From NCBI GenBank assembly GCA_045578325.1, contig JAZNJZ010000033.1, positions 38,224-102,223 on the forward strand: 64,000 nt of DNA, written 5' to 3'. Positions within the stretch are counted from its first letter, which is position 1; each line of letters begins with the position of its first letter. This DNA comes from Eubacterium sp. GTDB taxonomy: Bacteria > Bacillota > Clostridia > Lachnospirales > Lachnospiraceae. The position numbers and the translations under genes were made by a program. The notes below the pieces were generated by a model. The model worked only from the letters and a program-made list of their open reading frames with translations, was not told where the DNA came from and did not search any database. This document shows, piece after piece, positions 5,437-20,677 of the stretch.

Positions 5437-5470
5437 AGTAAATCTCTCCTTTATTTTTATTATTGATATT

Positions 5471-5521
5471 AGTAATCGTTACTGTTATTGATATAATACA
5501 ATATGAATCGACAAATGTCAA
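5471..5521 (-). promoter_or_regulatory. SigA promoter with putative PerR operator
   Basis: TTGACA (5521-5516), 17 nt, TATTAT (5498-5493); near-palindrome AGTAATCGTTACT at 5471-5483, just downstream of the -10. Confidence 0.6.
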
Positions 5522-5597
5522 CACTTTTTGAAAAATTTTTTCAACAAATTTTCTTTCTTGCTAATCTATGATATAATATAGAGAAAAGAGGTTTTTT

Positions 5598-6854
5598 ATG
5601 AACAAAAGAAAATACATATTTAGCAGATTGTTCACAGGGATTCTAACCGGACTTCTGGCGGGTGGCGTCATCTGCCTTTATCGATACCTTATTACCATCT
5701 GCGACAAAGCACTCAATAAATATATTTTCCCGTTCATTCACAACGGAAACCCGTTTGCCCTTCCCCTCTGGTGCGCAGGGCTTGTTGTATTGGCTTTTAT
5801 CGTTCATATGAGTATTCGATGGGAAAAACATGCGCGTGGTGGCGGTATTCCCCATGCGGTCCAGGAAGCGGCCGAGTTGCAAGACAGCACTTGGGACCGG
5901 GTCATCCTTGGCAAACTCATTACGGCACCGCTATGCCTTCTCGCTGGTTTCTCTTTAGGAAAAGCTGGACCTGCCATCGAACTGGGTGCCATGGCCGGAA
6001 AGGGAATTTCTAAAATCACATACAATATCCATCGTTTGTTTTTCTACCAACCACAACCAAAGATTCCAACTTCCGAAGGAATTCGTGCTGGAGCAGCCGC
6101 AGGACTTTCTGCGCTTTTCAATGCTCCCGTGGCAGGGTTTTTTTTCGCCATAGAAAAAATGAAAAAGACACCTGGCATTTCCTTGGTATCCATTCTTTCT
6201 GCGTCCCTAGCCGCCTTCTGGGTTAGCACTTGCGTGTATGGCCATGCGCCTATCGTTTCCTTTTCTCTCATCACTGCCAATCCCTTAGACTATCTCTCCT
6301 TTGCTGTACTTGGCATTTTCATGGGGCTCCTTGGCACATTTTATGCCGGCTCCCTAACCTATTTTACGAAAAAGTTTTCCACAAAGAACGGCTTTTCCCA
6401 GCTGGCTCTGTGGATCTTTGCTTTTGTCCTTGCTGGAATAACAGGATACTATCTTCCAGAAATCACAGGCGGTGGCACCAATCTTCTCGCCGTTATGGCA
6501 ACTCCTTCTGTGACTCTGCGAACTCTTTGCTATTTGGCCTTTGCCAAATATCTTTTCTCCATGCTTTCCTCTGGTTCCGGATTACCTGGTGGCACGGTGT
6601 TCCCTCTTCTCACCATTGGTGGTTGTCTGGGACAATGTTTCGCAATGATAGCAAATACACTCTTTCCTTCTCTGGAAATCACTCCTCTGAACTGGATCAT
6701 TCCAAGTATGGCCGGATTCTTTACCGCTGTTATCGGCGCACCGCTTACTGGTGTGTTTTTGCTCTGCGAATTCACTTGTCAGTATGAAATCTTTCTACCA
6801 CTGGCAATCACTTGTGGACTCTCCCATCTCGTGGCCAAAATTCTCACAAAATAA
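5598..6854 (+). CDS. ClC-family chloride channel/transporter with degenerate motifs
   Basis: Multi-TM protein with ClC landmarks GGGIP (canonical GSGIP), GKAGP (canonical GREGP), AAGLSALFNAPVAG.FF..E, GLPGGTVFP, APLTG.FL..E.T. Confidence 0.85.
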   Translation: MNKRKYIFSRLFTGILTGLLAGGVICLYRYLITICDKALNKYIFPFIHNGNPFALPLWCAGLVVLAFIVHMSIRWEKHARGGGIPHAVQEAAELQDSTWDRVILGKLITAPLCLLAGFSLGKAGPAIELGAMAGKGISKITYNIHRLFFYQPQPKIPTSEGIRAGAAAGLSALFNAPVAGFFFAIEKMKKTPGISLVSILSASLAAFWVSTCVYGHAPIVSFSLITANPLDYLSFAVLGIFMGLLGTFYAGSLTYFTKKFSTKNGFSQLALWIFAFVLAGITGYYLPEITGGGTNLLAVMATPSVTLRTLCYLAFAKYLFSMLSSGSGLPGGTVFPLLTIGGCLGQCFAMIANTLFPSLEITPLNWIIPSMAGFFTAVIGAPLTGVFLLCEFTCQYEIFLPLAITCGLSHLVAKILTK

Positions 6855-6870
6855 ATCCATTGTCCTTCGC

Positions 6871-6897
6871 ACCTTCTGCGAATTTTGTCATAAATTA
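6871..6897 (+). promoter_or_regulatory. Putative mother-cell (SigK-like) promoter of cotJ operon
   Basis: AC (6871-6872), 16 nt, CATAAATTA (6889-6897), fitting the AC-N16-CATAnnnTA consensus. Confidence 0.5.
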
Positions 6898-6924
6898 TAG
6901 TAAAAAGACAAAAGGAGAATTTCC

Positions 6925-7206
6925 ATGAATAATCAATATTCCAACTCTTGTGGCTGTGACAATGCCGGCGCTACTATGCAACCCGCTTCACAGTACAAGC
7001 AGAGAAAAAGTCTGGCTATGGCTTACGTTCCTTGGCAGACTTGGCAAAATGTAATGGACGGCTGCAGTGGTTTAAAACACGGCTCCATCTTTGAAGAATT
7101 GGTGCTTCCATTTGAAGGCACAAAAGCCGCCTGCGCCTTCTATAATCGCCGAGACAGCAAAGACATGGGGTACAACAACACGTATTATAGGAGGGGAATG
7201 AAATGA
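6925..7206 (+). CDS. cotJA: Spore coat-associated protein CotJA
   Basis: LAMAYVPWQ.W and GL..GSIFEEL..PF motifs; first gene of a cotJ operon. Confidence 0.88.
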   Translation: MNNQYSNSCGCDNAGATMQPASQYKQRKSLAMAYVPWQTWQNVMDGCSGLKHGSIFEELVLPFEGTKAACAFYNRRDSKDMGYNNTYYRRGMK

Positions 7207-7463
7207 ATCCGTCTGACCGCGCCAAAATGATGCGTTACATTCAGGAACTGGGCTTTGCCATCGACGATATCGTCCTTTATCTGGATACCCATCCGAAAGA
7301 TCAAGATGCTTTGATGTACTACGAAAAGTATAAAAAAATGTACAAAGAGGCACGTAAAGAATACACAAAGTATTTTGGACCTCTTGTAAATGAAAATGTT
7401 AATATTGAAAATGGCTGTTGGAGTTGGGTAGAAGGTCCATGGCCTTGGGAAGGGGGTTGCTAG
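7203..7463 (+). CDS. cotJB: Spore coat protein CotJB
   Basis: FAIDDIVLYLDTHP.D..AL, Y..YFGPL, W.WVEGPWPWE motifs. Confidence 0.92.
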   Translation: MNPSDRAKMMRYIQELGFAIDDIVLYLDTHPKDQDALMYYEKYKKMYKEARKEYTKYFGPLVNENVNIENGCWSWVEGPWPWEGGC

Positions 7464-7466
7464 GAA

Positions 7467-7652
7467 ATGTGGAATTATGAAAAACGATTGCAATATCCGG
7501 TAAATATTGCAAGACCAAATGCTCAATTGGCAAAAGTGATCATTAGTCAGTTCGGAGGTCCCGACGGAGAGGTCGGAGCAGCCATGCGTTATCTCTCCCA
7601 GCGCTACTCCAACACCAACCGTAAGGTAGCTGGTGTTTTGACGGATATTGGT
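7467..7652 (+). CDS. cotJC: CotJC (Mn-catalase family), 5' part of split gene, codons 1-62
   Basis: MWNYEKRLQYPVNI...SQFGGPDGEVGAAMRYLSQRY...LTDIG; similarity stops at Gly62 and the track ORF 7467-8240 reads through into unrelated sequence. Confidence 0.92.
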
Positions 7653-7806
7653 GTATCGGTACTGAAAATGCCCCAAAAGATTGTCCTACCTAAGAACACC
7701 TCCACGCAACTTGATAGTATAAGATCTTTCTATTTCTTGACAATAATCTCTTCCTATAATAAAATAACATTTAGAAGAAATGGGTTTTTTACCGTACGTG
7801 CAAAGA

Positions 7807-8159
7807 TTACTCTTTGTAGCCAAGCGGGGTGCCCGTTTCTCTTTTTATATTCACAATATCATACAAATACAATTTTCCATTTCTATCATGACGAACTAGT
7901 AATTCTGCATAAAACATATTATATCTCTCCACATCTCCATTTTCGTCAAATACAGGAAGGGCAAATCGTTTCCCAGATAAATTACATCTCCTGTTTCCAA
8001 AACTTCAAAAAACTCTCCTATGTACTGTTTCAGATATTTTTCCACATCATCCCAATTGATCTTTCGCTTGCCCCGAAAATAAATATCATGGATAATAACA
8101 ATCTTTTTCCCTTCCAAATCTTCAATAATGCTCACATTTCTATCCATTTCGTATCTCAT
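7807..8159 (-). pseudogene. Internally deleted, frameshifted cargo gene (LYDIVNIK-type; possibly LPD3/BECR-like family)
   Basis: N-terminal frame ...IFRGKRKINWDDVEKYLK...YLGNDLP-like segment (track ORF 7896-8159) overlaps a second frame RFALPVFDENGDVERYNMFYAELLVRHDRNGKLYLYDIVNIKRETGTPLGYKE* (7968-7807) across the 9 nt CGATTTGCC. Family assignment is from recollection. Confidence 0.65.
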
Positions 8160-9801
8160 CCCTTTCCTCTAATATCTCATTCACAAATTTACTTTCCAAT
8201 ATGTCCGTATGATATTCTTTCCCTTTGCCGGAAGATTTAATTTTCAATTCAATGCCAAAAGAAAGACTTTTCAGCCATACCACAAGTCGATTACGCCCTT
8301 TTTCCGTTTCATGATAAATGTCAATTCGCCCCAAAATTTCCCGATACAGCATCTCATTTCCCCCGCAAAAAGAAAGAATCCTGTCCACCGTTTTCTCTAG
8401 CTCATCCATACGCTCTTCAAGTTTGCTGAATTGCTGATTCCGATGCTCATTTTCTATTAGCAATGCTTGAAGACGCTCCCCTTCTTTGTCGTACCACTGG
8501 GATTGCCGTTCCCATTCTTCTTTGGTAAGAATTCCATCAAGAAGAGCATCAAAAGATTTTCGTTTTTTTGTCTCGATGCCTTCCAGCTTTCGATGTATCT
8601 TGTCTTTATCAAAAATGGTTTCCTTCGTTCCACACACTTCCTTAACACAAGATAATATTTCTCTTCGTAATTCATTCCGATCATCACACAAGAGCTTGAC
8701 ACAATATGTCATACAAGCAAGCAAAGCTCTATCATTAATTAAATTGTTGTTGCATCCCATTTCTTTTCCAGCCACATCCATTTTTAATGAACCATGTGTT
8801 GCTGTCTGATAACACCGCCATGCCTTGTATGTACCACCTGGCAACTTCTTCGTTCTGCTTACATATCGACTGCCACATTCCCCACAATGTATTTTCCCAC
8901 TGCACCAATAACGATTACTGTGCTTTGTCTTATTATCTGCCTTCAATGAACGTCTGGAAAGTTCTTCCTGTGTCCTATCCCACAAATCCCGATCGATAAT
9001 AGCTTCATGATGGTTTTTGATATACACCTTCTCCTCCGCTCCATTATTTATTTTCTTCTCATGGGTCAAATAATTTGGTGTATACGTTTTTTTCTGGCAT
9101 AAATCCCCCACATATTTTTCGTTTCGCAAAGCCCGAAGAATGACGTTGTTCGACCACCCAGAGAGCCGTTTTGGTCTTAGCCCTTCTTCCATTAGCTCTC
9201 TAGCAATGATGTGAGTGCCTTTTCCTTCGTTGGTGTATTTGTGGAAAATAGCTCGCACCACCGGAACTTCTTCTTCATTAATGGAAAGCACACCATCCTT
9301 CACTGTATAGCCTAGCATATCGCGTCCGAAAACAATTCCTTGCTCCATCCTTCGTTTTTGCCCCCATTTGACGCGCTCCGAAGTCTTGCGACTCTCTTCC
9401 TGTGCAATACTCGCCATAATTGTCAAACGCAACTCTCCATCGCTATCTCTTGTATCAATATTATCAATCGTAAATACGACGCCCACGCCGGCCTCTTTGA
9501 GTTTCCGCGTGTACGACAAAGTGTCCACTGTATTTCGTGCAAAACGACAAACCTCTTTGGTCAGAATCAAATCAACCTCTCCCAACAAGGCATTGTTTAT
9601 CATTTGATTAAATCCTGCTCTTTTTTTCGTCTGTGTTCCACTTACACCCTCATCATAATAAACGCGAGATAGTGTCCAGCCTTTATGATGCCTAATGTAA
9701 TCTGCAAAATATTTTTTTTGACTCGCTAGGGAATTTATCTGATCTTCCTTATCTGTAGATACTCTTGCATATGCTGCAACTCGTAATAGATTGTTTGACA
9801 T
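8140..9801 (-). CDS. Large serine recombinase (resolvase + recombinase + Zn-ribbon + coiled coil), SpoIVCA-like
   Basis: RVAAYARVST catalytic motif, Y.DEGVSGT, KEVCRFARN, SIAQEESRKTSERVKWG, LRNEKYVGD, CGECG...WRC; GGAGG RBS. Confidence 0.95.
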   Translation of the reverse strand: MSNNLLRVAAYARVSTDKEDQINSLASQKKYFADYIRHHKGWTLSRVYYDEGVSGTQTKKRAGFNQMINNALLGEVDLILTKEVCRFARNTVDTLSYTRKLKEAGVGVVFTIDNIDTRDSDGELRLTIMASIAQEESRKTSERVKWGQKRRMEQGIVFGRDMLGYTVKDGVLSINEEEVPVVRAIFHKYTNEGKGTHIIARELMEEGLRPKRLSGWSNNVILRALRNEKYVGDLCQKKTYTPNYLTHEKKINNGAEEKVYIKNHHEAIIDRDLWDRTQEELSRRSLKADNKTKHSNRYWCSGKIHCGECGSRYVSRTKKLPGGTYKAWRCYQTATHGSLKMDVAGKEMGCNNNLINDRALLACMTYCVKLLCDDRNELRREILSCVKEVCGTKETIFDKDKIHRKLEGIETKKRKSFDALLDGILTKEEWERQSQWYDKEGERLQALLIENEHRNQQFSKLEERMDELEKTVDRILSFCGGNEMLYREILGRIDIYHETEKGRNRLVVWLKSLSFGIELKIKSSGKGKEYHTDILESKFVNEILEERDEIRNG

Positions 9802-9851
9802 TGTGCTACCTCCAGAATATGGTCAAGCACATCATAAAATAATTATACACA

Positions 9852-10022
9852 CTACCTTATGATGCGTAAACTAGATTTTCTATTTTTTTGCAAAAGAATG
9901 TTTAGTTCCACATCGGTAAGTAATTTCTCTTTGTGAAGTTGTTTATAAATTCCATCTTTCAATGTGTCGTGAAATTTCTTTCTATCCTCACATACATTTA
10001 ATTTTTCTGCTTTTTCTTGCAT
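9852..10022 (-). CDS. 56-aa small protein, candidate recombination directionality factor (not in ORF track)
   Basis: Manual translation MQEKAEKLNVCEDRKKFHDTLKDGIYKQLHKEKLLTDVELNILLQKNRKSSLRIIR; co-oriented and 50 nt upstream of the recombinase; short SHOCT-like helical pattern. Confidence 0.55.
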   Translation of the reverse strand: MQEKAEKLNVCEDRKKFHDTLKDGIYKQLHKEKLLTDVELNILLQKNRKSSLRIIR

Positions 10023-10117
10023 TATCTAATCATCTCAACTCGAAATATATCTATACAATTTATGCAATAAAAAAAATAAATTCCCCTCCTTGGTGCAATT
10101 TCACCTCCAAACTCGGT

Positions 10118-10540
10118 ACCGAAGAACTGGCTCACATGGAAATTGTGTGTGCCATCATCCACCAGCTCACCAAGAACCTCACCGCAGAGGAATTGCAAGA
10201 GCAGGGCTTCGCCCCTTACTACGTGGACCACACCATCGGTTTGTGGCCACAGGCTGCTTCCGGCGAGCCATGGAGTGCCAGCATGATCCAATCCACCGGG
10301 GATCCCATTGCAGACCTTCATGAGGACTTGGCAGCAGAACAGAAAGCCCGCCTGACCTACGACAACATCCTCCGTCTCGTAAAAGACCCCGATGTGTGCG
10401 ACCCTATCAAATATTTGCGCCAGCGCGAATTGGTTCACTATCAGCGATTCGGCGAAAGCCTTCGCTTGATTCAAGATGAGCTGGATAGCAAAAACTTCTA
10501 CGCATTTAATAAGGACTTTGATAAGCAATTCTGTAAGTAA
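10118..10540 (+). CDS. cotJC: CotJC, 3' part of split gene
   Basis: TEELAHMEIVCAIIHQL...GDPIADLHEDLAAEQKARLTYDNIL...RELVHYQRFGE; no own RBS or start; the rejoined gene gives 202 aa. Confidence 0.92.
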   Translation, partial: TEELAHMEIVCAIIHQLTKNLTAEELQEQGFAPYYVDHTIGLWPQAASGEPWSASMIQSTGDPIADLHEDLAAEQKARLTYDNILRLVKDPDVCDPIKYLRQRELVHYQRFGESLRLIQDELDSKNFYAFNKDFDKQFCK

Positions 10541-10544
10541 TAGC

Positions 10545-10595
10545 CACAAAGCCCCCGGATTCCACCACAGGAACCCGAGGGCTTCTCTATTTATT
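10545..10595. repeat. 51-bp direct repeat, copy 1 (terminator-like hairpin)
   Basis: CACAAAGCCCCCGGATTCCACCACAGGAACCCGAGGGCTTCTCTATTTATT, identical to 15058-15108. Confidence 0.95.
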
Positions 10596-10620
10596 ACATT
10601 TTCATAGGTAGCTCTCATCT

Positions 10621-10929
10621 TCATTTTTGAGTATTTTTCAATGCATTGTACTGCTCTAACTCCCGTATTAATTTTCTAACCATACTCATTTGATCATCTG
10701 TCAACTCGGCTTTCATCAACTGCATATCATCTGAGAGTCCCAATAAATAATCGGAAGAAATCCCGAAAATCGTGCACAACTTAACAAGCACCTCAATAGA
10801 TGGGTACTTTTTCCCTTGTTCATATGCAGAAACCGTTCCCTTTACTAACTCCAGCTTTTGCGCTAACTGTTCCTGCGTCATATGTTTTTCCAAACGTAAT
10901 GCTCTTAACTTCTCTCCAAAATATTGCAT
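10621..10929 (-). CDS. XRE-family HTH transcriptional regulator
   Basis: FGEKLRALRLEKHMTQEQLAQKL...VSAYEQG...PSIEVLVKLCTIFGISSDYLLG; AGGAG RBS before ATG 10929. Confidence 0.9.
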   Translation of the reverse strand: MQYFGEKLRALRLEKHMTQEQLAQKLELVKGTVSAYEQGKKYPSIEVLVKLCTIFGISSDYLLGLSDDMQLMKAELTDDQMSMVRKLIRELEQYNALKNTQK

Positions 10930-10974
10930 GGCACTCACTCCTAAATATAGTATATAAAAGCAATGTCTCTTTTG

Positions 10975-11024
10975 GGTTGACTTGTATACTCTAGGTTGAT
11001 TTTGGTTGAATTTTTTGTTATACT
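10975..11024 (+). promoter_or_regulatory. SigA-type promoter of the islet operon with three GGTTGA repeats
   Basis: TTGATT (10996-11001), 17 nt, TATACT (11019-11024) with upstream TG; GGTTGA at 10975, 10994, 11004. Confidence 0.45.
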
Positions 11025-11059
11025 ATTATATAAAATAAAAGAAAGCGAGGATACACAAT

Positions 11060-12130
11060 ATGAAAAATGGATTAAAAAGAATACTTAGTCTGCTGCTTGC
11101 ACTTGTATTACTGGTAGGAGCAGCCTTAACACCTAGTCAATCAAAGACTGTCAAAGCCTTTACTGACAACACCACCATGGCGGGTGCCACACCGATTAAC
11201 ATTGGGGAAAGTCTGACAGGAACCTTTAATGATATTGACTATGAAACGCATTACTTTAAATTTACAGTACCTGCTGATGTTGGAAATCAGTGGATGAAAT
11301 TTTCCATGTCATATTATTCACAAGATATTTGGAATATAAAAATGGACATATGCGATTCACAAGGAGACTCTCTATTATCGGATAGTTGGTCACCTGGCGA
11401 GTCCGCATATTTCATAACTAAATCTGCTAATTCTGGCACATATCTAAAAAACAATCGAGTTTTGACTGCTGGTACCACTTATTACCTTAAACTATATCCA
11501 TCCCTAGTCAGTTCAGAAGGCAACTTCGCCTTATCCATCGAAAGTACCACCGACGACAACTGGGGAACATTCGAAAACGCTGAAGCTATCGGCGTGAACC
11601 AAAGAAAAAATGGTAAACTAGAATACAACGATGATATGGACTTCTTTTTCATCGATTTGCCAAAGGATAACAGAAAATATACCTTTACCGTTAACAGTGA
11701 CAATCAGACAAAGGTACTGTATACAAACGGTAACCGCATCAAAATGTCCGATGTTACAGTATCCGCTCACAATACCGATGCCTCATTTACAGCAACAGGA
11801 AAAGGACAGCGTATCTACATCTGGTTAGAAACCGGAAGTAGTAATGTCACCTCAGCCAACTATTCTGTAAAAGTAATTGGAGAAAAGAAAGCAATTTCCA
11901 CACTTAAATTAACAAAATACAAAAAGGGTACCAAAAAAATCATCGGTAGAACCGTTTCGAATGCTAAAGTTAAAGTTACCATAAAGAAAAAGAAATATAC
12001 CGTAACTTCAAAAAATACTGGAAAATTTGTTGTTAAATTGAAGAAGAAATTGAGATCCCGCAACAAAATAAAGATATCTGTTTCAAAATCCGATTACAAA
12101 TCTTTGAGAAAATCATTTCGCGTAAAATAA
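11060..12130 (+). CDS. Secreted protein: two PPC-like beta-sandwich domains + basic Ig-like C-terminal domain
   Basis: Signal peptide; two repeats of the pattern A..I.....G.....D..D.F.F; C-terminal KKIIGRTVSNAKVKV...GKFVVKLKKKL. Confidence 0.6.
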   Translation: MKNGLKRILSLLLALVLLVGAALTPSQSKTVKAFTDNTTMAGATPINIGESLTGTFNDIDYETHYFKFTVPADVGNQWMKFSMSYYSQDIWNIKMDICDSQGDSLLSDSWSPGESAYFITKSANSGTYLKNNRVLTAGTTYYLKLYPSLVSSEGNFALSIESTTDDNWGTFENAEAIGVNQRKNGKLEYNDDMDFFFIDLPKDNRKYTFTVNSDNQTKVLYTNGNRIKMSDVTVSAHNTDASFTATGKGQRIYIWLETGSSNVTSANYSVKVIGEKKAISTLKLTKYKKGTKKIIGRTVSNAKVKVTIKKKKYTVTSKNTGKFVVKLKKKLRSRNKIKISVSKSDYKSLRKSFRVK

Positions 12131-12162
12131 AGTAACTTTTCACACAAAAGGAGGAATTAATT

Positions 12163-13365
12163 TTGAAGAAACTAAGCTCACTAACCTACCTATTTCTTTT
12201 GGTAATATGCTTTGCTCTTTTCTCCACAGAAGATGTAAGCGCAAAAGGCAACAATTATAATGTATCCGCAGACGGAAAAAGCTGTAGCAAAGGTAACACA
12301 ACTTTCTCCATCAGCAATGATACATTATACAAAGAAAAAGGAAACTCAGCCAAGAAAAAAATCAAGAAATTTAAGGATCCGAATGACATGTCTTCCTACG
12401 AAATATGTGTAGCACGCAAGAACAGAATATATATCAATCAACGCATTGAAGCCTCCCCTTCTGTTCTTTACATGTACAATGCGTCTAGCAACCAACTCAA
12501 AAAGTTAGGAACCGGTATATCAATCGTCCAAATCATCGGTCAGTATTTTATCGCAGAAAGTGGCGGCCGCACCGATATCAGCACTGCCCCGCTATATCTG
12601 TACAAGTTTACAAACAACGGAGTAAAAAAAGTAAAGACTCTTACCAACTACGGCTTTGACACAGCGGTGTATGGAAAGAAATTTTACTATAGCTCCTATA
12701 CCCAAAAAGGGTTGACCAAGATGACCGTGTACTCTTGTAATCCCAATGGAACAAAAGCGAAAAAAATTTGTACCAAAGCTGCAAAGGATAAAGAATATGG
12801 AATGGTTCAATTTGTAGGCGTACACAAAAACTATTTACGTATCTACGAAAATGGAACGGAATCCAAATACTATTTCCGCAAAAAGAATTCAACGAAAACT
12901 GCAGCCAGCCATAACGCAACATCGTACAAATCATTAAGTGCTGTTGAAAGGCATTACCAAAAAACATGTACGGAAAAGGCTGGTTCTGGTATTTATGTCG
13001 CACGTCATAAAATCAAAACGGCATACGGCATAAAAAAAGCCTTGTTTGTCTATGTAAGTGGCTTTTCAGCAGATTGTACACAGACAGATATATTCTTCCA
13101 AAATGGAAAAAAGGTAATGAAGATGGCTACGATAAGTGGCGTACCTTACATGATATCCAAAAACAAAAAATATATTTCCGTATCTGGTAGTAGTACATTT
13201 TCTGCCCTCTACAAATATTCTTCTGGAAAATATAAAGAAGAAAAAATGCTTACTCCTAGCACATCCAAAGAGATGGCAAATGCAAAAAAAGCAGAGAAAA
13301 TCTGGCAGAAGAAGTATAAGATTACTTCATCAATAAACTACAAATACAAGAATGCTATAAACTAA
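12163..13365 (+). CDS. Secreted Lys-rich hypothetical protein (possibly beta-propeller-like)
   Basis: TTG start with AGGAGG RBS, signal peptide, repeated aromatic beta-strand motifs. Confidence 0.6.
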   Translation: MKKLSSLTYLFLLVICFALFSTEDVSAKGNNYNVSADGKSCSKGNTTFSISNDTLYKEKGNSAKKKIKKFKDPNDMSSYEICVARKNRIYINQRIEASPSVLYMYNASSNQLKKLGTGISIVQIIGQYFIAESGGRTDISTAPLYLYKFTNNGVKKVKTLTNYGFDTAVYGKKFYYSSYTQKGLTKMTVYSCNPNGTKAKKICTKAAKDKEYGMVQFVGVHKNYLRIYENGTESKYYFRKKNSTKTAASHNATSYKSLSAVERHYQKTCTEKAGSGIYVARHKIKTAYGIKKALFVYVSGFSADCTQTDIFFQNGKKVMKMATISGVPYMISKNKKYISVSGSSTFSALYKYSSGKYKEEKMLTPSTSKEMANAKKAEKIWQKKYKITSSINYKYKNAIN

Positions 13366-13392
13366 CAAAGTAAGAAAGTGAGGAACCTTAAT

Positions 13393-14187
13393 ATGAAAAA
13401 AATCATTACTACACTACTAACAATGACATTGTTAATAACTTCTGTCATTGCCCCAAGCCGCCCCCAATATATGGAGGCATCTAGTAACAATTATATGAAG
13501 TCACTAAATCTAAAATGGGACTTAAAAAAGAATAAGAATGTAACATTAACTGCTAACTATCCTGGAATTGGTCACAAAAAATTTAACGTAAAAATGACTA
13601 CCTATAAAATAGAAAACGCAGCCGATGACAAATACAATAAACTCACAGTAGGTTACACTGTAACTCGCAAGTGGACACCAACAAAAAAACAAGTGGATAA
13701 GATTCTCAAGACGTGTTATGTTAAATTACAAAAGGATTATGCTTATGTTCCTTTTGTAAACGGTTATGCCGTAGTTGATTATAATACAGGAGTTTCTTTG
13801 GAAGGAAAAAATGATTTTGATGTTACAGTTAAAACACTTAAAAACAAATCTTCTGGAACCAAAAAATTTAAATGCAAAAATGGCTGGATCAAACTTGCCA
13901 AAACTGCTACCGTCAAGTTCCAGGTAACATACCCAAAAGATTATACCGGATTATCCATTGGATTACTTGGGCGCAATGCAGAGTACGGAAAAACGATTCG
14001 TGTACAGGAAGATAGATCTATCGGAGTAACTGACGTGGATGCAACTTTTTTTGAAGCAACAAAATTGTCGAAAGTGAAAAAAAATTTGTATCGAGAAGAT
14101 GAGGAGGGAACGCCTTTCCGCTATGGTGATACTTCATATTATCTAAAAGGAAAGAAAAACTCCCATTGGCTACGCGTAAATCCATAG
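13393..14187 (+). CDS. Secreted Lys-rich hypothetical protein
   Basis: MKKIITTLLTMTLLITSVIAP signal peptide; GAGG RBS. Confidence 0.65.
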   Translation: MKKIITTLLTMTLLITSVIAPSRPQYMEASSNNYMKSLNLKWDLKKNKNVTLTANYPGIGHKKFNVKMTTYKIENAADDKYNKLTVGYTVTRKWTPTKKQVDKILKTCYVKLQKDYAYVPFVNGYAVVDYNTGVSLEGKNDFDVTVKTLKNKSSGTKKFKCKNGWIKLAKTATVKFQVTYPKDYTGLSIGLLGRNAEYGKTIRVQEDRSIGVTDVDATFFEATKLSKVKKNLYREDEEGTPFRYGDTSYYLKGKKNSHWLRVNP

Positions 14188-14221
14188 TAAAGATTAGCAG
14201 AAATAATCTCGTTAATATTGC

Positions 14222-14247
14222 AAGGGGCTGTAAGTAATAGCCCCTTG
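14222..14247 (+). terminator. Hairpin (putative terminator) after third islet gene
   Basis: AAGGGGCT...AGCCCCTT inverted repeat. Confidence 0.5.
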
Positions 14248-14291
14248 TGGTATTAATACTGTATGAAAAGCTGAAAGGAATGGGTACTACA

Positions 14292-15044
14292 ATGAATAAA
14301 CTCACAAAATCCACTATCATAATTGTGACAGCAATTTCTGTTATTGGAACTTCAAGTAGGAGCATGGTAGCGGCTTCCCCAAAATCCATTAAAGTAAGCG
14401 CTAAAAAAGTTACAATTATAATGGGGAAAAAGAAAACAGTCAAAGTTAAAAATGCAAAAAACTTTACTGTTAAAAGCTCTAAGAAAAGTATTGTAATGGC
14501 AAAAAAGAAGGGCTCGAAAGTAATCTTGAAGGCAAAGAAAACTGGAAATGCAAAAGTCACAATCAAGGCCCCCGGTAAGAAAAGTACTAAAATCCGAGTA
14601 AAAGTAAAAACGACTAGTACAACTAATAGAGCCCAAAAGAGCAATAAAAAGTATAATGAAGTTCAAGTAAGTACCGAAAAAAGAGCAGCCGCTCAAAAAG
14701 CTGCTGCCGGTATAGTAAAAGTTAAGTTTTCTGACTCTGACAAAGATATGGTTGACGGTGACACGGTAGTTCTTTCTCAGAATGACAGTATTAAGTATGT
14801 AAGTTTCAGAAATGAATATGTACTTAATATTTCCGATTATCAAGAAAGAATTGCATTAGCATATTATAATGAAATAGGATCATATGGTCCTTTTGGCAAA
14901 GTTCCTAAATGGCTAACTGACATTTATAAATCGCTACCAAATGTAAGAAAAGAACGTCATGGCAAAAAATTATTTATGTATTTATTTGATTTACATGATG
15001 AAGAAAGCGGAATATATTTAGAAGGTATAGGGACAAGCCTTTAA
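14292..15044 (+). CDS. Secreted protein with N-terminal basic Big_2-like domain
   Basis: Signal peptide; SIKVSAKKVTIIMGKKKTVKV...KAKKTGNAKVTIK matches the Ig-like group 2 pattern. Confidence 0.65.
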   Translation: MNKLTKSTIIIVTAISVIGTSSRSMVAASPKSIKVSAKKVTIIMGKKKTVKVKNAKNFTVKSSKKSIVMAKKKGSKVILKAKKTGNAKVTIKAPGKKSTKIRVKVKTTSTTNRAQKSNKKYNEVQVSTEKRAAAQKAAAGIVKVKFSDSDKDMVDGDTVVLSQNDSIKYVSFRNEYVLNISDYQERIALAYYNEIGSYGPFGKVPKWLTDIYKSLPNVRKERHGKKLFMYLFDLHDEESGIYLEGIGTSL

Positions 15045-15057
15045 AAACAAACTTACA

Positions 15058-15108
15058 CACAAAGCCCCCGGATTCCACCACAGGAACCCGAGGGCTTCTC
15101 TATTTATT
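15058..15108. repeat. 51-bp direct repeat, copy 2 (terminator-like hairpin 3 nt from clpB stop)
   Basis: Identical to 10545-10595. Confidence 0.95.
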
Positions 15109-15111
15109 CTC

Positions 15112-17673
15112 TTATAACATTTCCGCCTCGATGACAAAGCACTGTCCCGGCTCAAGCTCATCCGCCAATATTTTTTTCGCAAGCAATGTTTCCACATGTT
15201 TTTGCAAATATCGTTTCAGCGGTCTGGCGCCATAGGCTGGCTCATAGGCCTCTTCCACTACCTTGTCCATAGCCGCCTCGGTCAGTTGTACCGAAAGCTC
15301 CCGATCCGCCAAACGCTCATTCAATTCCTTCATCAACAAATGAATGATGCCACGAATGTTTTCTCGGGTCAGTGGCTTAAACATGATGATCTCATCCAGA
15401 CGATTGAGGAACTCTGGCTTAAAGCTCATACGAAGCCGCTCATTCACAAGCTCCTCTGCCTCTGGCTGTATGGTTCCGTCTTCGCTGATTCCATCCAGCA
15501 GATACTCCGCACCAAGATTCGATGTCATGATCAAAATCGTATTTTTAAAGTCCACGGTACGACCTTGGGAATCCGTCACACGTCCGTCATCCAAAATCTG
15601 CAAAAATACATTGAATACATCTGGGTGCGCTTTCTCTATCTCGTCAAACAGCACTACGGAATATGGTTTCCGGCGAACCGCCTCTGTCAGCTGGCCCCCT
15701 TCTTCGTATCCCACGTATCCCGGAGGCGCTCCGATGAGTCGTGACACCGAATGCTTCTCCATATACTCACTCATGTCGATACGCACCATATTTTGCTCAT
15801 TGTCAAATAGATTCTGCGCAAGGCTTTTTGCTAACTCCGTTTTTCCCACACCAGTTGGTCCGAGGAATAAGAAGGAACCAATTGGTTTCTCCGGATCCTT
15901 GATTCCCGCTTTGGAACGAAGAATGGCCTCCGTTACCTTCGTCACACCTTCCTCCTGGCCGATGACACGCTCATGCAAGGCATCTGCCAACTGCAACGTT
16001 TTCTTTCGCTCTGACTCCGTTAATTTAGCCACCGGAATTCCCGTCCAGCGAGACACGATTTTCGCAATTTCTTCCTCCGACACACTCTCGTGCACCATGG
16101 ACTGCTCATTGTTCTTTGCTTTCTCCTCTGCCTCTGCTAACTGCTTCTGAATCCGTGGCAAATCTCCGTATTGAAGTTGTGCTGCCTTTTCCAGATCGTA
16201 ACTGTTCTTCGCCACTTCAATCTGGTTATTTACCGCTTCCAACTCTGCCTTTAAGTTGTGGACTTTCTCCACCACGCTCTTTTCATTGTCCCACTTTGCC
16301 TTTGCCCCGGCAAATATCTCTCGCTCTTCTGCCAGCTCCTTTTGGAGATTTGCCAGACGCTCCTGACTAAGTTTGTCTGTCTCTTTTTTCAACGCCGCTT
16401 CTTCGATCTCCATCTGCATGATACGACGTTTCACATCGTCAAGTTCGGTTGGCATGGAATCCAGCTCAGTCTTAATCAATGCACAGGCCTCGTCCACCAG
16501 GTCGATTGCCTTATCCGGCAAGAAACGATCCGATATATAGCGGTCTGAAAGTACAGCTGCGCTTACCAAAGCGGCATCCATAATCTTTACACCATGAAAA
16601 ATCTCATAACGATCTTTCAATCCACGCAAGATGGAAATGGTATCTTCCACCGTTGGCTCGTCCACCAGAACGGGCTGGAATCGACGCTCCAATGCCGCAT
16701 CTTTCTCAATATACATGCGGTACTCATCCAGTGTTGTAGCACCGATGCAATGAAGCTCGCCACGGGCAAGCATTGGCTTTAGCATATTGCCAGCGTCCAT
16801 GGCACCATCGGTCTTCCCGGCTCCTACGATGGTATGCAACTCATCCACAAAGAGAATGATCTGCCCATCGCTTTCCTTCACTTCTTCCAGCACCGCTTTC
16901 AGACGTTCCTCAAATTCACCGCGGTACTTGGCACCAGCCACCAGGGAGCCCATATCCAGCGCAAAGATTTGCTTATTCTTCAGCGCATCCGGCACATCCC
17001 CCCGAACAATTCGCTGGGCAAGACCCTCCACTGCTGCCGTCTTACCCACACCAGGCTCACCGATCATCACCGGATTGTTTTTTGACTTTCGTGATAAAAT
17101 ACGGATCATATTACGAATTTCCGAGTCCCTGCCGATCACGGGATCAAGCTTCTGCTGTCTTGCTCGCTCCACCAGATCGTATCCGTATTTGCTCAAACTG
17201 TCATAAATCGCCTCTGGATTATCTGTGGTTACTTTCTGATTTCCACGTACTTTCGCAAGGGCCTGCAAAAATCTCTCGCGATCAATCTGGAAATCCTTAA
17301 ATAATTGCTTTACTTCCTGTGACGGCTTACGAAGTAGGCTTAAGAATAAATGTTCTACCGACACATATTCATCCCCCAGTGCCTTGGCTTCATTTTCCGC
17401 ATACACCAACACTTTATTTAGCGCCTCCCCGATGTATACCTGTCCACCACTGACCTGTGGACGTCTCCTTACCAATCCCTCTACTTGAGCAAGGAACACA
17501 TCCCCATCAATCTCCATTTTCTCAATCAATTTCTTTAAAAGACTATCTTCAATAGTGAGCATCCCGTACAACAAATGCTCCTGCACGATTTCTTGTGCCC
17601 CAAAATCATATGCAACTTTCTCAAGGCCATTCAAAATCTCAATTGACTTTTGTGTAAATTTTGTAATATTCAT
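15112..17673 (-). CDS. clpB: Chaperone ClpB
   Basis: Two AAA+ modules ([16 protein letters not shown]), coiled-coil middle domain, [23 protein letters not shown]. Confidence 0.97.
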
Positions 17674-17718
17674 AGAAAAGCCCTCCCTTTCAGTGCGTTA
17701 TTCTAACTCTACATCTTT

Positions 17719-17760
17719 GTTATATCACATCTATTAGCACTCGTCAAGAGTGAGTGCTAA
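17719..17760 (-). promoter_or_regulatory. CIRCE (HrcA operator) overlapping the clpB promoter
   Basis: TTAGCACTC-N9-GAGTGCTAA at 17734-17760; -35 TTGACG (17747-17742), 17 nt, extended -10 TGaTATAAC (17724-17719). Confidence 0.93.
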
Positions 17761-17856
17761 TAATTTTCAAATCGTTTTAATATAGAAAAGTCCCTGACCC
17801 AGCTATTCGCCAAACCAAGGACTCTATTTCATTATTATTTATTTTCTATTTTTACA

Positions 17857-19308
17857 CTAGAACACCGACTCACCCTGCGCACTCATTTCCTCAACCGTGG
17901 TAATCATGGTATCCAAAATTCCAATTACCTTTGCGGAAAGAGTCTCACATTCTCCAGCCCACTTCGAAGCATCCTCTGTGCTGTTGGCATCAATGGCCTC
18001 TATAATTCTTTTACCCATCTGATGGAATGTCTTATGCACCTCATCCAACTCGGTCCATGCATCCACAAGTTTTGGATGTGTCATATTAATTGCATTGTAA
18101 TAATGACCAAAGGCACATTTATTCCCATTCATCTGGATTGGCTGAGAGCGCATTTCATTTGCCATTGTTACCGCTTTCTTTTCCCAATCCTTGTGAGCTC
18201 CCTTGGACGCTTTCAAAATATCAATGAAGTCATCGTTGGACAACATGGTAATTCCTGTGTTCAAGCCTTTATAAAGCAGATTGGTACTGGTAGTCAAATG
18301 TTCATCAATGAATTCGATCTGATCCGAAACTTTCTGTGTCTCGTCTGCCAACTCGCTTACTTTTACCGTAAGACGTGTAATGTCCTCTGCATCCTGACTA
18401 CACTGCTCCATGGCAGCATTGACATCTTGGGATGCTACCTCTACCATTTTCATATACTCGTCCATGGCATTCACATCTTTTGCCACCAGATCCAGCATAT
18501 CAATATTTTCGCCTACTGTCTTAAATACAACATCAATTTTTCCACTCATATCCTGTGTGGATTGCGCTGCCTGTTTTGTACTTTCATGTCCCGCCTTCGA
18601 CGCAACTAAAATCTTCTTCACGAATTGACGCATGGAATCCAATTCCCTCTGCGTATTTTCTGCCAGCTTTCCAACCTCGCCAGCCACCACAGCAAATCCT
18701 TTTCCCTGCTCGCCAGCTCTCGCCGCCTCGATGGACGCATTCAATGCCAAAAGGTTGGTCTGGGCCGCAATTCCCTGGACACTATCCACAATACCTTCGA
18801 TTTCGCGCACCAAATCAACAAGATTCATAATCTGATCGCTCATCTGATCCGTATCCTTCATAACGTCTTCCTTCAATACGGCAACCTCTTGCAACAGAAT
18901 CCGCGCCTCGTTATTTTTCTCTGTCAACGCACGACTTTCTCGAGAAAGCTGCTCCAAACGTTCGGATGTGTATCCCACATTGTCCATCACCTGACCCATG
19001 GTAGCTGTGGTTTCTTCCACGATGGCCAGATTGGACTGAGAAAGATCTGCCAAGTTATTTGCAAAGTCTGCCAGATAATCCGCCATATAGGACATCTCTA
19101 CATCAAAGTTCGAAATCTTGCTGGATACTTGCATGACTTCTTTGGACTCATGAATCGCAGTTTGCTGAAATTCCAGCACTCGATCAATTGTCTCTAAAAA
19201 CTTCTTTGCCCCTATGGATTTTACTGCAGGAACCGCTATCTCTATACCTTTTGTCCGTGCTTCTACATATGCCTGAAGCATCTGCATATCATCTGTTTTC
19301 TTTGTCAT
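17857..19308 (-). CDS. Soluble methyl-accepting chemotaxis protein with C-terminal CZB domain
   Basis: [30 protein letters not shown] signalling motif; H..W...CAFGHYY...H..FH zinc motif; no TM segments. Confidence 0.9.
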
Positions 19309-19355
19309 ACCGGTTTCCTCCTTTTATAATACTTTTCTCATATTTTGATATAAAT

Positions 19356-19384
19356 ATTATATCTAGAATACCGATTTCTGTCAA
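19356..19384 (-). promoter_or_regulatory. Consensus SigA promoter for the MCP gene
   Basis: TTGACA (19384-19379), 17 nt, TATAAT (19361-19356). Confidence 0.8.
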
Positions 19385-19387
19385 TGA

Positions 19388-19858
19388 TTACACCAGCAAG
19401 TCCGCCTCCTCATAGCGAATCACTTTTTTCAAATCCTCTGGCGAAACTTCGACCTGATAGCCTATCTTTCCTGCACTAAAAAAGATGGTATCATAGCTCG
19501 CCGCTGTCATATGGATTACGGTCTGGAAATTTTTCTTCATCCCAATAGGCGAACATCCACCATGGACATATCCGGTGAGAGGCAAAAGTTCCTTTTGCTT
19601 GATCATCTGTATCGCCTTTTCCCCCACTGTCTTTGCTGCCTTTTTCAAATCCAGCTCGCCGTTTACCGGGATAACAAACACATAATTATTTTTACTCTTC
19701 CCCTCCGTCACAAGCGTTTTAAACACCTGGTCTGGATTTTGCCCCAGCGCCGCAGCCACTTCTTCTCCGCCTACGGCGCCGGTGTCTGTATAACAATAAC
19801 TTTGATATGGAACCTTTTTCTGTTCCAATACCCTCATCACATTTGTTTTCTCTGCCAT
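19388..19858 (-). CDS. ybaK: Cys-tRNA(Pro) deacylase
   Basis: KTNVMRVL, QVFKTLV, LTGYVHGGCSPIGMKK, SAGKIG.Q. Confidence 0.92.
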   Translation of the reverse strand: MAEKTNVMRVLEQKKVPYQSYCYTDTGAVGGEEVAAALGQNPDQVFKTLVTEGKSKNNYVFVIPVNGELDLKKAAKTVGEKAIQMIKQKELLPLTGYVHGGCSPIGMKKNFQTVIHMTAASYDTIFFSAGKIGYQVEVSPEDLKKVIRYEEADLLV

Positions 19859-20127
19859 TATTTTTTTCCTTTATCCTTCATGATTTTCTTCATCATTTCC
19901 ACTTTTTTTCGCTCCTCGGGCGTCATATCCTTGGTCAGGATTCCAAGCAGCACCTGAACCTCCTCAGGAGAAAAAGTAAGATTCTGCGCCCGCAATCGTT
20001 GCATAGCTTCCATAATCAATGGCGCCACTTGCTTCTTGTCTTTTCCTCTGGACTTTTCTTCCAGTTCCTTAATGATCTGAGCTTTAACCGGGTGCATGTT
20101 TTGAAAAATATCATTGTGGTCTGTCAT
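19858..20127 (-). CDS. Conserved hypothetical protein (~89 aa)
   Basis: GAGGGG RBS before ATG 20127; helical charged protein. Confidence 0.65.
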   Translation of the reverse strand: MTDHNDIFQNMHPVKAQIIKELEEKSRGKDKKQVAPLIMEAMQRLRAQNLTFSPEEVQVLLGILTKDMTPEERKKVEMMKKIMKDKGKK

Positions 20128-20647: not shown

Positions 20648-20677
20648 CTCATAGTGAAATGATGACCGTGGCCCTTC

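Follow-up and report, generated by a model that had tools for sequence, protein, structure and literature searches.

In the 64,000-nt stretch of DNA that was analysed (the window), which comes from a gut Lachnospiraceae bacterium, a repeat-flanked genomic islet, horizontally acquired and without a recombinase of its own, lies between the convergent genes cotJC and clpB. Comparison with relatives indicates that the islet was inserted in a spacer that formerly held one bidirectional terminator hairpin, with a copy of the spacer left on each side. Our preferred explanation, to which we give a probability of roughly 0.45, is that it arose as a CIME-type integrative cassette that is non-autonomous.

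Architecture of the islet

The 51-mer CACAAAGCCCCCGGATTCCACCACAGGAACCCGAGGGCTTCTCTATTTATT occurs twice, at 10545-10595 and 15058-15108; the copies are 100% identical and 4513 nt apart. The left copy follows the stop codon of cotJC (TAA, 10538-10540) after 4 nt (TAGC), and the right copy, which ends at 15108, is separated by 3 nt (CTC) from the stop codon of clpB (15112-15114). Coordinates and reading of the sequence thus confirm the repeat pair of the original prediction, 4 nt after one stop codon and 3 nt from the other. Even when up to 3 mismatches are allowed, the 64-kb window contains no third copy, and 100 shuffles give 0 matches, so that a chance repeat of the 51-mer is not expected. The features of the region are as follows.

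7650..10114, - strand: separate element in cotJC, outside the islet; 2465 bp; its sole gene encodes a large serine recombinase (8140-9801)
10115..10540, + strand: 3′ part of cotJC, left flank; Mn-catalase-type spore coat protein (Pfam Mn_catalase, E 2e-28)
10531..10545, no strand: 15-mer CTGTAAGTAATAGCC; final 10 nt of cotJC and the 5 nt after it; adjoins the left 51-mer
10545..10595, no strand: left 51-nt direct repeat; hairpin 10549-10584; 3′ of cotJC (+) and the islet HTH gene (-)
10621..10929, - strand: XRE-family HTH regulator; 102 aa from ATG (Pfam HTH_3, E 5e-15)
10939..11059, no strand: divergent promoter region between regulator and cargo operon, from sequence and consensus scan
11060..12130, + strand: O1, secreted protein; signal peptide, two PPC/collagen-binding-domain-like beta sandwiches, C-terminal Ig-like domain
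12163..13365, + strand: O2; 400 aa, signal peptide, no family assignment
13378..14187, + strand: O3; 269 aa, signal peptide, no family assignment
14195..15057, + strand: segment missing in organism A; 863 nt, comprising the O3 hairpin and O4; ends exactly at the right 51-mer
14211..14257, + strand: RNA hairpin 3′ of O3; 21 pairs, 5 of them G.U; -32.2 kcal/mol, z -7.5
14289..15044, + strand: O4, secreted protein; Ig-like N-terminal domain
15058..15108, no strand: right 51-nt direct repeat; hairpin 15062-15097; 3′ of O4 (+) and clpB (-)
15112..17673, - strand: clpB, right flank, convergent with cotJC; chaperone ClpB (NCBIfam TIGR03346, 1295 bits against a cutoff of 1232)

The interior between the repeats (4462 bp) is AT-rich, with a GC content of about 35% (31-40%) compared with about 49% (46-52%) outside, which supports a foreign origin by composition. 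On the left repeat converge cotJC and the islet regulator, and on the right repeat the cargo operon and clpB; neither cotJC nor clpB lost its 3′ end or its hairpin after the insertion.

The stop codon of the regulator is 25 nt from the left repeat. Its best NCBIfam match is an RstR-family repressor, below cutoff, and it is 74-80% identical to Lachnospiraceae regulators of about 100 aa. The divergent region upstream contains three GGTTGA repeats and, by consensus match only, a candidate promoter at 10996-11024 (TTGATT, 17 nt, TATACT, with TG).

O1 has 315 homologues at E<=1e-3, the best of which are 42-46% identical. Its AF2 model (pLDDT 88.5) has fold matches that include the tandem collagen-binding domain of ColG and other beta-sandwich arrays, and multi-repeat relatives of O1 carry Pfam PPC. 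A search of 5.8 billion proteins with O2 returns no match except O2 itself; over its C-terminal 140 aa, O2 shares 37% identity with the ORF located after the O1 homologue in locus L088, and two small ORFs in locus L086 match the N-terminal half of O2. For O3, the L088 element has a weakly similar ORF of 255 aa (E 0.002). O4 has homologues (39-44% identical) in two settings: in L085 the gene is the only one on a contig of 963 nt, and in L084 its neighbours are a restriction-modification system and a resolvase. The four signal-peptide proteins with beta-sandwich or Ig-like domains are presumably surface or secreted binding proteins.

The 15-mer at the end of cotJC recurs exactly at 14228-14242, just 3′ of the third cargo gene O3, where it forms the apex of the O3 hairpin. 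A direct repeat of at least 15 nt is present in only 3.5% of Markov-1 random sequences of the region.

No recombinase is detected in the five ORFs of the islet by Pfam, NCBIfam and PHROGs scans, and no transposase by Pfam and NCBIfam. In addition, tblastn with the Int, Xis and Rep proteins of L086 and L088 finds no homologue anywhere in the 64-kb window. The proposal that the islet contains no integrase is therefore borne out. No inverted repeat is found at the islet ends.

Character of the repeated hairpin

Each repeat contains a hairpin of 36 nt (10549-10584 and 15062-15097) with a 15-bp stem and a 6-nt loop. As + strand RNA, it has a folding energy of -20 to -24 kcal/mol (z -5.7 to -6.5) and two C.A mismatches; as - strand RNA, it reaches -30.5 kcal/mol (z -6.7), and its 16-bp stem is paired throughout with the help of G.U pairs. 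The fully paired strand is the sense strand of clpB and the islet HTH gene. In the sister species described below (L177), 2 of the 5 substitutions relative to the window fall in the stem, in a comparison of two full sequences. In both, the - strand stem is fully paired through G.U or canonical changes, and the + strand has two mismatches.

The stable GC-rich stem-loop lies 3-25 nt after four stop codons of convergent genes, the position of a bidirectional terminator. The original prediction that the 51-mer is itself a terminator hairpin stands in that a stable, conserved hairpin follows convergent stop codons, and is weakened by the U-tracts. The tails of the 51-mer hairpin are weak, CUCUAUUUAUU on the + strand and CUUUGUGUGU on the - strand, those of the L177 hairpin are UUUUGU and AUUUAUUUU, and a simple consensus terminator scan makes no call at the 51-mer hairpin. 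Because of the weak U-tracts and the silent scan, terminator-like is the safe wording; the 51-mer is best described, from its predicted folds, as a terminator-like hairpin whose pairing appears to be kept across the window and L177.

Empty and filled sites in relatives

The sister species L177 (ClpB 96.5% identical in amino acids) is collinear with 5300-25004 of the window, and its site is empty. Its cotJC-clpB spacer is 58 nt long with exactly the layout 4 + 51 + 3, and holds a single homologous hairpin that aligns to both copies of the window. The ancestral state that had been predicted, cotJC and clpB with one common terminator, thus exists in L177.

A second relative (organism A), a different species seen in an independent data set (run X3), is filled at the same site. 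One contig leads from O3 into clpB across 53 nt, joining 14194 to 15112 via these 53 letters and omitting O4; a second leads from cotJC through the hairpin to the end of the HTH gene. The 5′ arm of the hairpin is present on both sides of its islet. Judged from these contigs, the islet is composite, since its last 863 nt (14195-15057) are missing in the relative. The repeat copies are lineage-specific: those of organism A are of the L177 type, and those of the window have a type of their own.

Between the window and organism A, the islet core is 90-96% identical in nucleotides (O2 differs at 14/103 third codon positions), and clpB is about 85% identical (19/~50 third positions differ). The right edge of the islet is as diverged as clpB (86%), and the edges are the least conserved parts of the islet. 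A short sample of clpB suggests that organism A is nearer to L177, whose site is empty, than to the window. By this comparison, the islet is not a recent strain-specific arrival: a different species has it at the same site, and the right edge of the islet has diverged like clpB. The 51-mer copies, in turn, are too alike for an old, independently evolving pair. The original prediction had named fixation of the islet in all relatives as evidence against it; the islet is absent in L177 and present in organism A.

The same prediction would also be undermined if the 51-mer belonged to a dispersed terminator or REP-like family, with two independent members here, or if the islet were an assembly chimera made through a common k-mer. 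The 51-mer is indeed an intergenic hairpin, and a length of exactly 51 resembles an assembler word length. A family of this kind has many copies per genome; we find two in 64 kb and exactly one in L177, at the orthologous place. Species-representative genome and metagenome collections give 0 matches to exact or degenerate hairpin patterns, bar 3 unrelated palindromes, and no related copy is found in 2.7 Mb of fetched loci. As far as these sequences show, the 51-mer is not multicopy. Independent X3 contigs also link the islet to both flanks. We consider a repeat family or a chimera very improbable.

Related modules in other Lachnospiraceae

Small Tn916-type integrase/excisionase elements (L086 and L088/L089) contain the regulator-O1-O2 module with its order and orientation unchanged. 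Both encode Integrase_DNA/Phage_integrase and Tn916-Xis proteins, and L088 also encodes Viral_Rep. The homologues in L088 and L086 are 78% (regulator) and 42-46% (O1) identical in amino acids, and the O2 domains are syntenic. Like the islet, these elements have an XRE regulator, O1 and O2 domains and a divergent regulator-cargo layout. Unlike the islet, they carry int and xis (in L088 also rep) after the regulator: in L088, the regulator is the first gene of a strand that continues to rep, xis and int, whereas the corresponding strand in the window stops at the left repeat. Their end repeats are imperfect (about 38-45 nt, 71% alike) and unrelated to the 51-mer. The module also occurs in integrase-free chromosomal loci, so homology to the cargo of an integrase element is no proof of descent from one.

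In two other Lachnospiraceae (L092 and L096), a one-gene insertion with flanking repeats of 58-62 nt adjoins a homologous regulator, and conspecific or close genomes (L090, L091, L093 and L097) have a single-copy empty site. The repeats are 95-98% alike within a genome and about 83-85% between the species, and each resembles the empty site of its close relative; the two inserts are as diverged as their hosts. As the empty and filled sites show, repeats of this type do mediate gain or loss. In an unrelated Clostridiales locus (L024), a 52-nt hairpin-containing repeat surrounds a 1.3-kb insert between convergent genes.

Origin of the islet

Direct repeats of 8-60 bp flank tyrosine-recombinase IMEs and frequently take in the target gene's 3′ end (PMC5704250), and the 51-nt repeat falls within this range. 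The islet resembles the CIMEs and decayed IMEs known from Firmicutes, such as those at the ICESt1/ICESt3 site in Streptococcus thermophilus (PMC5704250), in that a few kilobases of repeat-flanked cargo, akin to modules of integrase elements, lie at the 3′ end of a conserved gene, with both empty and filled sites. It likewise has no integrase, excisionase or transfer genes inside, and no integrase of its own at one end as an autonomous IME would have. Its flanking repeat is exact, and the abutting 15-mer, which includes the end of cotJC, recurs inside, a second match without a clean explanation. Unlike for CIMEs, no cognate ICE or IME with the same att and no accretion partner are found, and the repeat is a whole fast-evolving intergenic terminator of host type in both copies instead of a conserved gene end.

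As a CIME-type cassette, the islet would either be left over from a tyrosine-integrase integrative mobilizable element carrying a regulator-O1-O2-like module or depend on such an element as its passenger. The 51-nt repeat would be the att identity block, possibly 65 nt long originally and reaching 10 nt into cotJC. Its identity may reflect a recent duplication or last integration in the lineage, or gene conversion of one copy by the other. Having no recombinase, the islet could now only be lost precisely by recombination between the repeats, be moved by a recombinase acting in trans, or be carried with flanking DNA. Site-specific integration with an att core in the terminator, as originally predicted, is something we infer: no cognate integrase or attP-bearing relative is found in genome, metagenome, plasmid and phage collections, where the genus is very poorly sampled and the species almost absent, and no circle or deletion joint is seen in five public runs with words common to the region, at low coverage. 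A foreign attP would give hybrid, non-identical copies unless these were later homogenised, and both copies are of the host-lineage type. That the edges are the least conserved parts of the islet would count against ends recognised by a recombinase, and so does the tightness of the cassette against a CIME, with 25 nt from the repeat to the HTH stop codon and no pseudogene debris.

The att identity blocks of tRNA and gene-3′-end islands and ICEs (8-60 bp; PMC5704250) are in the same length range as the repeat, and, as at the islet, the host gene remains intact since its 3′ end is rebuilt by the duplicated block. Unlike the islet, such elements encode an integrase next to the target gene, and their target sequence is strongly conserved from host to host. 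One example is ICEBs1, with repeats of 60 bp at trnS-leu2. Pseudo-SCC cassettes without ccr and Xer-dependent modules (pdif modules, IMEX) are recombinase-less and bounded by repeated sites, with the enzyme encoded elsewhere; their sites are 15-28 bp long, conserved and present at many loci, and nothing similar is found for the 51-mer. A transposon or insertion sequence with target-site duplication is rejected: the islet lacks both a transposase and terminal inverted repeats, and at 51 nt or more its duplication far exceeds the 8 bp given for DDE-transposase IMEs (PMC5704250).

A somewhat unlikely alternative is an insertion without any recombinase, in which break repair, template switching or a Campbell-type single crossover of a circularised fragment duplicated the local spacer. 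The repeats would then persist as needed terminators, occasional gene conversion would keep them alike, and homologous recombination would yield empty sites. Such an event fits the local lineage type of both copies in two species, the absence of conserved islet termini and of a recombinase, the 52-nt hairpin repeat of L024, and the parallel of L092 and L096, whose repeats are alike within a genome and like the empty site of its own relative. The duplicated sequences of the two systems are unrelated, so there is no common att core. To our knowledge, however, no established bacterial repair pathway regularly gives clean flanking duplications of 50-65 nt. Gene conversion between 51-nt repeats is also expected to be rare, yet the copies in the window have 0 differences, and the module does ride on integrase elements elsewhere. 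The layout with a terminator on each side has been engineered for non-polar insertion of a marker between convergent genes (PMC8880864). This construct, SPbeta::spc, has the same architecture as the islet, with both flanking genes keeping a terminator and the insert insulated, but it is the artificial product of a double crossover with a designed fragment and is silent on the natural mechanism (PMC8880864).

We find it improbable that the islet belongs to an undescribed system of cassettes mobilised in trans, with insertion at terminators or next to them and target-site duplications of about 50-65 nt of recipient sequence. Such a system would account without extra assumptions for identity within and lineage specificity between genomes, the window and organism A having been struck independently, and likewise L092 and L096. 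The islet core is more similar (90-96%) than clpB (~85%), which suggests later horizontal exchange. Organism A is nearer to the empty L177 on the short clpB sample, so that one gain and one loss, or two gains, are equally parsimonious. Against such a system, the duplications vary in length (45 nt or more, 51, 58, 62), there are neither terminal inverted repeats nor conserved ends, the right edge has diverged like clpB, as a vertically inherited junction would, and the L092 and L096 inserts have diverged as much as their hosts. We know of no candidate enzyme for such long target duplications. It is a long shot that Lachnospiraceae add cassettes at terminators by an undescribed route that copies 50-65 nt of recipient sequence on each side. 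If they did, an enzyme encoded elsewhere or structure-directed repair would act repeatedly at loci of this XRE regulator family, and the window islet, the filled site of organism A and the L092/L096 insertions would be independent products.

A second insertion in cotJC

The original prediction of cotJC as a double insertion hotspot holds: in addition to the islet at its 3′ side, the 2465-bp element splits its coding sequence, so cotJC has been struck twice. The serine recombinase of this element has Resolvase, Recombinase and Zn_ribbon_recom domains. It lies 745 nt from the left repeat, its best NCBIfam matches are Ccr-type cassette recombinases (well below cutoff), and the 51-mer is dyad-symmetric like recombinase sites; the islet could thus be pictured as its second, SCC-like cassette, with the enzyme acting on the 51-mers. 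We give this almost no credence. The junctions of the element share only GGT and have no similarity to the 51-mer, the flanks match it at 24/65 positions, which is chance level, and organism A has the islet alone, without the element. Long identical repeats are not a product of serine recombinases, whose crossover is 2 nt (PMC5704250). Contigs of runs X1 and X3 skip the 2465-bp element, L177 is without it, and joining 7467-7649 to 10115-10540 restores an in-frame CotJC of 202 aa.

Structure of the islet boundaries

The islet occupies the spacer between the convergent genes cotJC and clpB and is bounded by an exact direct repeat of the 51-mer CACAAAGCCCCCGGATTCCACCACAGGAACCCGAGGGCTTCTCTATTTATT, with an offset of 4513 nt. 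Only 4 nt separate the cotJC stop from the left copy, and 3 nt lie between the right copy and the clpB stop, which confirms the original observation. The features are as follows.

10545-10595, left copy of the 51-mer
10596-15057, islet interior, 4462 bp, five genes
10621-10929, minus strand, XRE-family HTH regulator
Plus strand, divergent from the regulator, cargo genes O1 (356 aa), O2 (400 aa), O3 (269 aa), and O4 (about 251 aa)
15058-15108, right copy of the 51-mer

Repeat positions 5-40 form a stem-loop with a 15-bp stem and a 6-nt loop. As plus-strand RNA, the hairpin contains two C.A mismatches and folds at -20 to -24 kcal/mol. As minus-strand RNA, it forms a 16-bp stem that includes G.U pairs and leaves no position unpaired (-30.5 kcal/mol, z -6.7), and this better-folding strand is the sense strand of clpB and of the islet regulator gene. 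A consensus terminator scan does not call the hairpin and its U-tracts are weak; therefore, we refer to it as a terminator-like hairpin. The region has no tRNA or Rfam match, so known RNA families are rejected at the site.

The window contains no third copy of the 51-mer at up to 3 mismatches, and shuffled sequences yield no match. Searched as an exact 40-mer or 32-mer, the repeat has no match in genome and metagenome collections. A degenerate hairpin pattern with one base that varies in L177, the sister-species locus described below, held fixed retrieves three unrelated palindromes and nothing else, and the pattern with that base freed has no match in metagenomes. Within the 64-kb window and the collections searched, a dispersed repeat (REP) family is essentially excluded, as is an assembly chimera.

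The 15 nt abutting the left 51-mer (the cotJC end plus 5 nt) have a second, exact occurrence at 14228-14242. Because one copy touches the 51-mer, the recurrence is far from chance, and it suggests an original duplicated block of 65 nt that extended into cotJC, with the O4-bearing DNA joining later. However, 14211-14257 folds into a 21-bp plus-strand hairpin (-32.2 kcal/mol, five G.U pairs) in which the 15-mer forms the apex and the 3' arm falls within the supposed O4 insertion. A hairpin spanning the junction makes a simple insertion of O4 there unlikely. The 15-mer is thus dropped as proof of a 65-nt duplication followed by O4 insertion in the right copy.

Empty and filled sites in sister species

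Anchoring on the reconstructed CotJC identifies an empty site, L177, in a MAG labelled Eubacterium sp. RGIG8980 (CotJC and ClpB 95% and 96.5% identical in amino acids, 80-84% nucleotide identity). In 80 ClpB-anchored loci, cotJC is absent within 10 kb of clpB. Window 5300-25004 is collinear with L177, minus the islet and a 2465-bp recombinase element in cotJC. The L177 spacer from the cotJC stop to the clpB stop is 58 nt long and carries one hairpin, TCTCCTGACAGACAAAAGCCCTCGGATTCCGCCACGGGAACCCAAGGGCTTATTTATT. Both window copies align to L177 2827-2889, and the 51-mer differs from the L177 hairpin by 5 substitutions and 2 indels. The ancestral state that had been predicted, cotJC and clpB with one common terminator, is therefore present in L177, and insertion into a shared terminator is borne out by a real empty site: a single terminator received the insertion and was duplicated. 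As in the window, the L177 hairpin is fully paired on the minus strand and mismatched on the plus strand, and the pairing pattern supports a putative role for the hairpin as an RNA structure of the clpB transcript.

Islet-like DNA is found in a single public run, X3, from a relative referred to as organism A. Its contigs are 90-96% identical to the window over O1-O3, 86% at the 3' end of O3, and 85-88% over cotJ and clpB. One contig follows O3 to 14194, continues with 53 unmatched letters, and then reaches the clpB stop at 15112. The joining of 14194 to 15112 places the organism A islet at the same site, without 14195-15057 and hence without O4. The letters past O3 (AAAAGCTCAAAAGCCCTCGGATTCCATCGC) and past the cotJC stop (CTCCTGACAGACAAAAGCCCTCGGATTCCA) reveal a hairpin copy on each side, both of the L177 type and not of the window type, as read over the first half of the copies. 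The recombinase element is absent from organism A cotJC.

In a 156-nt sample of clpB, organism A and the window differ at 25 positions, L177 and the window at 32, and organism A and L177 at about 20. The three are separate species, and on this sample organism A is perhaps closer to the empty L177 than to the window. They constitute a natural series: empty, filled, and filled-plus-extended. In run X2, cotJC and clpB pieces are 97-99% identical to the window and islet coverage is zero, which may point to an islet-free strain, although the contig itself begins within the repeat, at 15076. The deletion joint 10595/15109 is not seen in the thinly covering reads and contigs of five runs.

Age and homogeneity of the repeat

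The window and L177 hairpins are separated by at least seven events in 51 nt, and the hairpin region changes at about the rate of the rest of the genome. If the two window copies had been separate since the species split, about 5-7 differences between them would be expected, but none is seen (Poisson probability about 0.001-0.01). This indicates either a recent duplication or last integration in the window lineage, or conversion between the copies.

Third codon positions differ at 14 of 103 sites in O2, compared with 19 of about 50 in clpB. The islet core is thus less diverged than clpB, whereas the right edge is diverged like clpB, and the mismatch identifies the islet as a mosaic. The islet is probably an old resident, the core of which was later exchanged between lineages; the islets of the window and organism A might alternatively be independent insertions.

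Content of the islet

The GC content is 31-40% in the islet and 46-52% in the flanks. None of the five genes encodes a recombinase according to Pfam, NCBIfam, and PHROGs, which bears out the claim, made from the sequence, that no integrase lies inside, and no homologues of Int, Xis, or Rep are found across the 64-kb window. The islet is a composite lacking a recombinase, and sister species have the site in both empty and filled form.

Signal-peptide-like N-termini are present in all four cargo proteins. The O1 family has 315 detectable relatives, and the confident O1 model (pLDDT 88.5) comprises two PPC/collagen-binding-domain-like beta sandwiches and a C-terminal Ig-like domain; Pfam PPC is present in multi-repeat O1 relatives. 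An origin of O1 from phage or plasmid is rejected. No full-length relative of O2 is found among 5.8 billion proteins. The few O4 relatives (39-44%) are a lone gene on a 963-nt contig or have a restriction-modification system and a resolvase as neighbours. Exact-protein look-ups with ClpB, O2, the YbaK-like protein, and the cotJC 3' ORF return no record; for CotJB the sole return is a 1.4-kb contig, which lies inside the recombinase element. Three GGTTGA repeats at 10960-11010, between the regulator and O1, overlap a promoter-like site and could serve as operator half-sites for the XRE protein. With its PPC-like and Ig-like secreted proteins under an XRE repressor, the cargo may be a surface trait that varies between strains of a gut genus that is thinly sampled.

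Relatives of the cargo and parallel insertions

The regulator (78% amino acid identity), O1 (42-46%), and O2 domains keep their order inside small elements with Tn916-type integrase and excisionase (loci L086 and L088/L089), with a Rep protein in L088 too. In the L088 element, the regulator heads a strand that runs on to rep, xis, and int, whereas in the window the regulator strand stops 25 nt past the regulator, at the left repeat. The end repeats of L086 and L088 are imperfect and unrelated to the window 51-mer; those of L088 are 38 nt long, with GGGGTAAA motifs. L088 appears to hold two integrase-bearing elements in tandem (2136-2173, 15352-15389, 17011 onward), an apparent accretion. L086 is a 4.7-kb mini-element (an O1 homologue, two small ORFs, xis, and int) bounded by L088-related motifs.

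The same regulator-O1-O2 module also occurs in integrase-free chromosomal loci, L090-L093 and L098. In L092, a 2741-bp unit lies directly downstream of the homologous regulator and contains one gene, encoding a 775-aa repeat protein (LRR/DUF285-like). An orthologous filled site is present in another species, L096. The bounding repeats are as follows.

L092, 10337-10394 and 13078-13135, 58-nt direct repeat, one mismatch
L096, 10333-10394 and 12995-13056, 62-nt direct repeat, 3 mismatches

A single-copy empty site is present in L090, L091, and L093, conspecific with L092 (97-98% identical), and L097 has an empty site matching L096. The repeats start within the terminator of the regulator and are unrelated in sequence to the window 51-mer. 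Within a genome, their copies agree at 95-98%, and across species at about 83-85%, and the copies of L092 and L096 each resemble the empty site of their own close relative. Relative to L090, L092 also carries a 114-nt tandem duplication (13674-13901, 95% identical) in or beside a HEPN-domain gene.

Isolated direct repeats of 35-60 nt at 0.3-15 kb spacing are infrequent: ClpB-anchored loci totalling 1.6 Mb contain about 4. One of these, in an unrelated Clostridiales MAG (L024), is an exact 52-nt repeat with a GC hairpin (12316-12367 and 13675-13726) that encloses a 1.3-kb insert with one membrane/zinc-ribbon ORF, between convergent genes.

Possible mechanism of insertion

The islet belongs to a known class, that of genomic islets flanked by repeats and lacking an integrase. 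As the most likely reading, to which we give a probability of roughly 45%, it would be a CIME-like non-autonomous integrative cassette, with the repeat as the att identity block of a tyrosine-integrase element. This is consistent with the 8-60-bp repeats of IMEs, their targeting of gene 3' ends, and the definition of CIMEs (PMC5704250). The main rival is insertion and duplication independent of any recombinase. In that case the repeats would simply be terminators that were kept; conversion would have homogenised them, and they could also give rise to deletion of the islet. This rival fits the copies being specific to each lineage, the lack of similarity between the targets in the window and in the L092/L096 system, and the unconserved islet ends, but it has no known pathway, and we regard it as less likely than the cassette. 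A new cassette mechanism that makes long target duplications would give the most direct account of the copy pattern, but it is without an enzyme and without conserved ends, and appears improbable. That the neighbouring serine recombinase acted on the two copies is essentially excluded.

The only non-routine point is that the copies are identical per genome and lineage-specific across genomes in two independent systems. Whether terminator repeats are homogenised by conversion or regenerated by repeated insertion is testable from this copy pattern. Every transcription unit retains a terminator after the insertion, a route by which gut Firmicutes can place operons for surface proteins between convergent housekeeping genes while avoiding polar damage, and a similar architecture is seen again at other loci beside members of this regulator family.

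The recombinase element in cotJC and gene order of the region

The 2465-bp element (7650-10114) interrupts cotJC after codon 61. Its only gene is listed below.

8140-9801, minus strand, large serine recombinase, with the gene stop at 8140

Removal of the element, with GGT common to both joints, restores an in-frame 202-aa CotJC. The element is skipped exactly in contigs of X1 (an RNA run) and X3 and is absent from L177. It is a skin-like sporulation intervening element, and a cotJC case has already been reported in Laceyella sacchari (bioRxiv 10.1101/2022.02.25.481979). A Logan contig from another sample (L176) matches window 7051-7967 at 100% identity and 7960-8256 at 99.7%, and has 182 extra nt (918-1099) in the element relative to window 7960-7967, just past the recombinase 3' end. 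In an Oscillospiraceae MAG (L153, 3603-4616 and 5249-5431), a large serine recombinase (29% identity) lies beside a cotJC fragment (62% identity), which suggests that the interruption may recur in a second family.

Two rubrerythrin genes at 3643-4188 and 4891-5436, offset by 1248 nt, share exact stretches of 53, 65, and 198 nt, indicating a putative recent tandem gene duplication. The gene order of the cotJ region differs within the group: L178-L181 have clpB upstream of the cotJ operon and in the same orientation, and clpB is convergent with cotJC in L177, L182, and the window. The L182 locus has an xpt-permease operon, without repeats, between cotJC and clpB.
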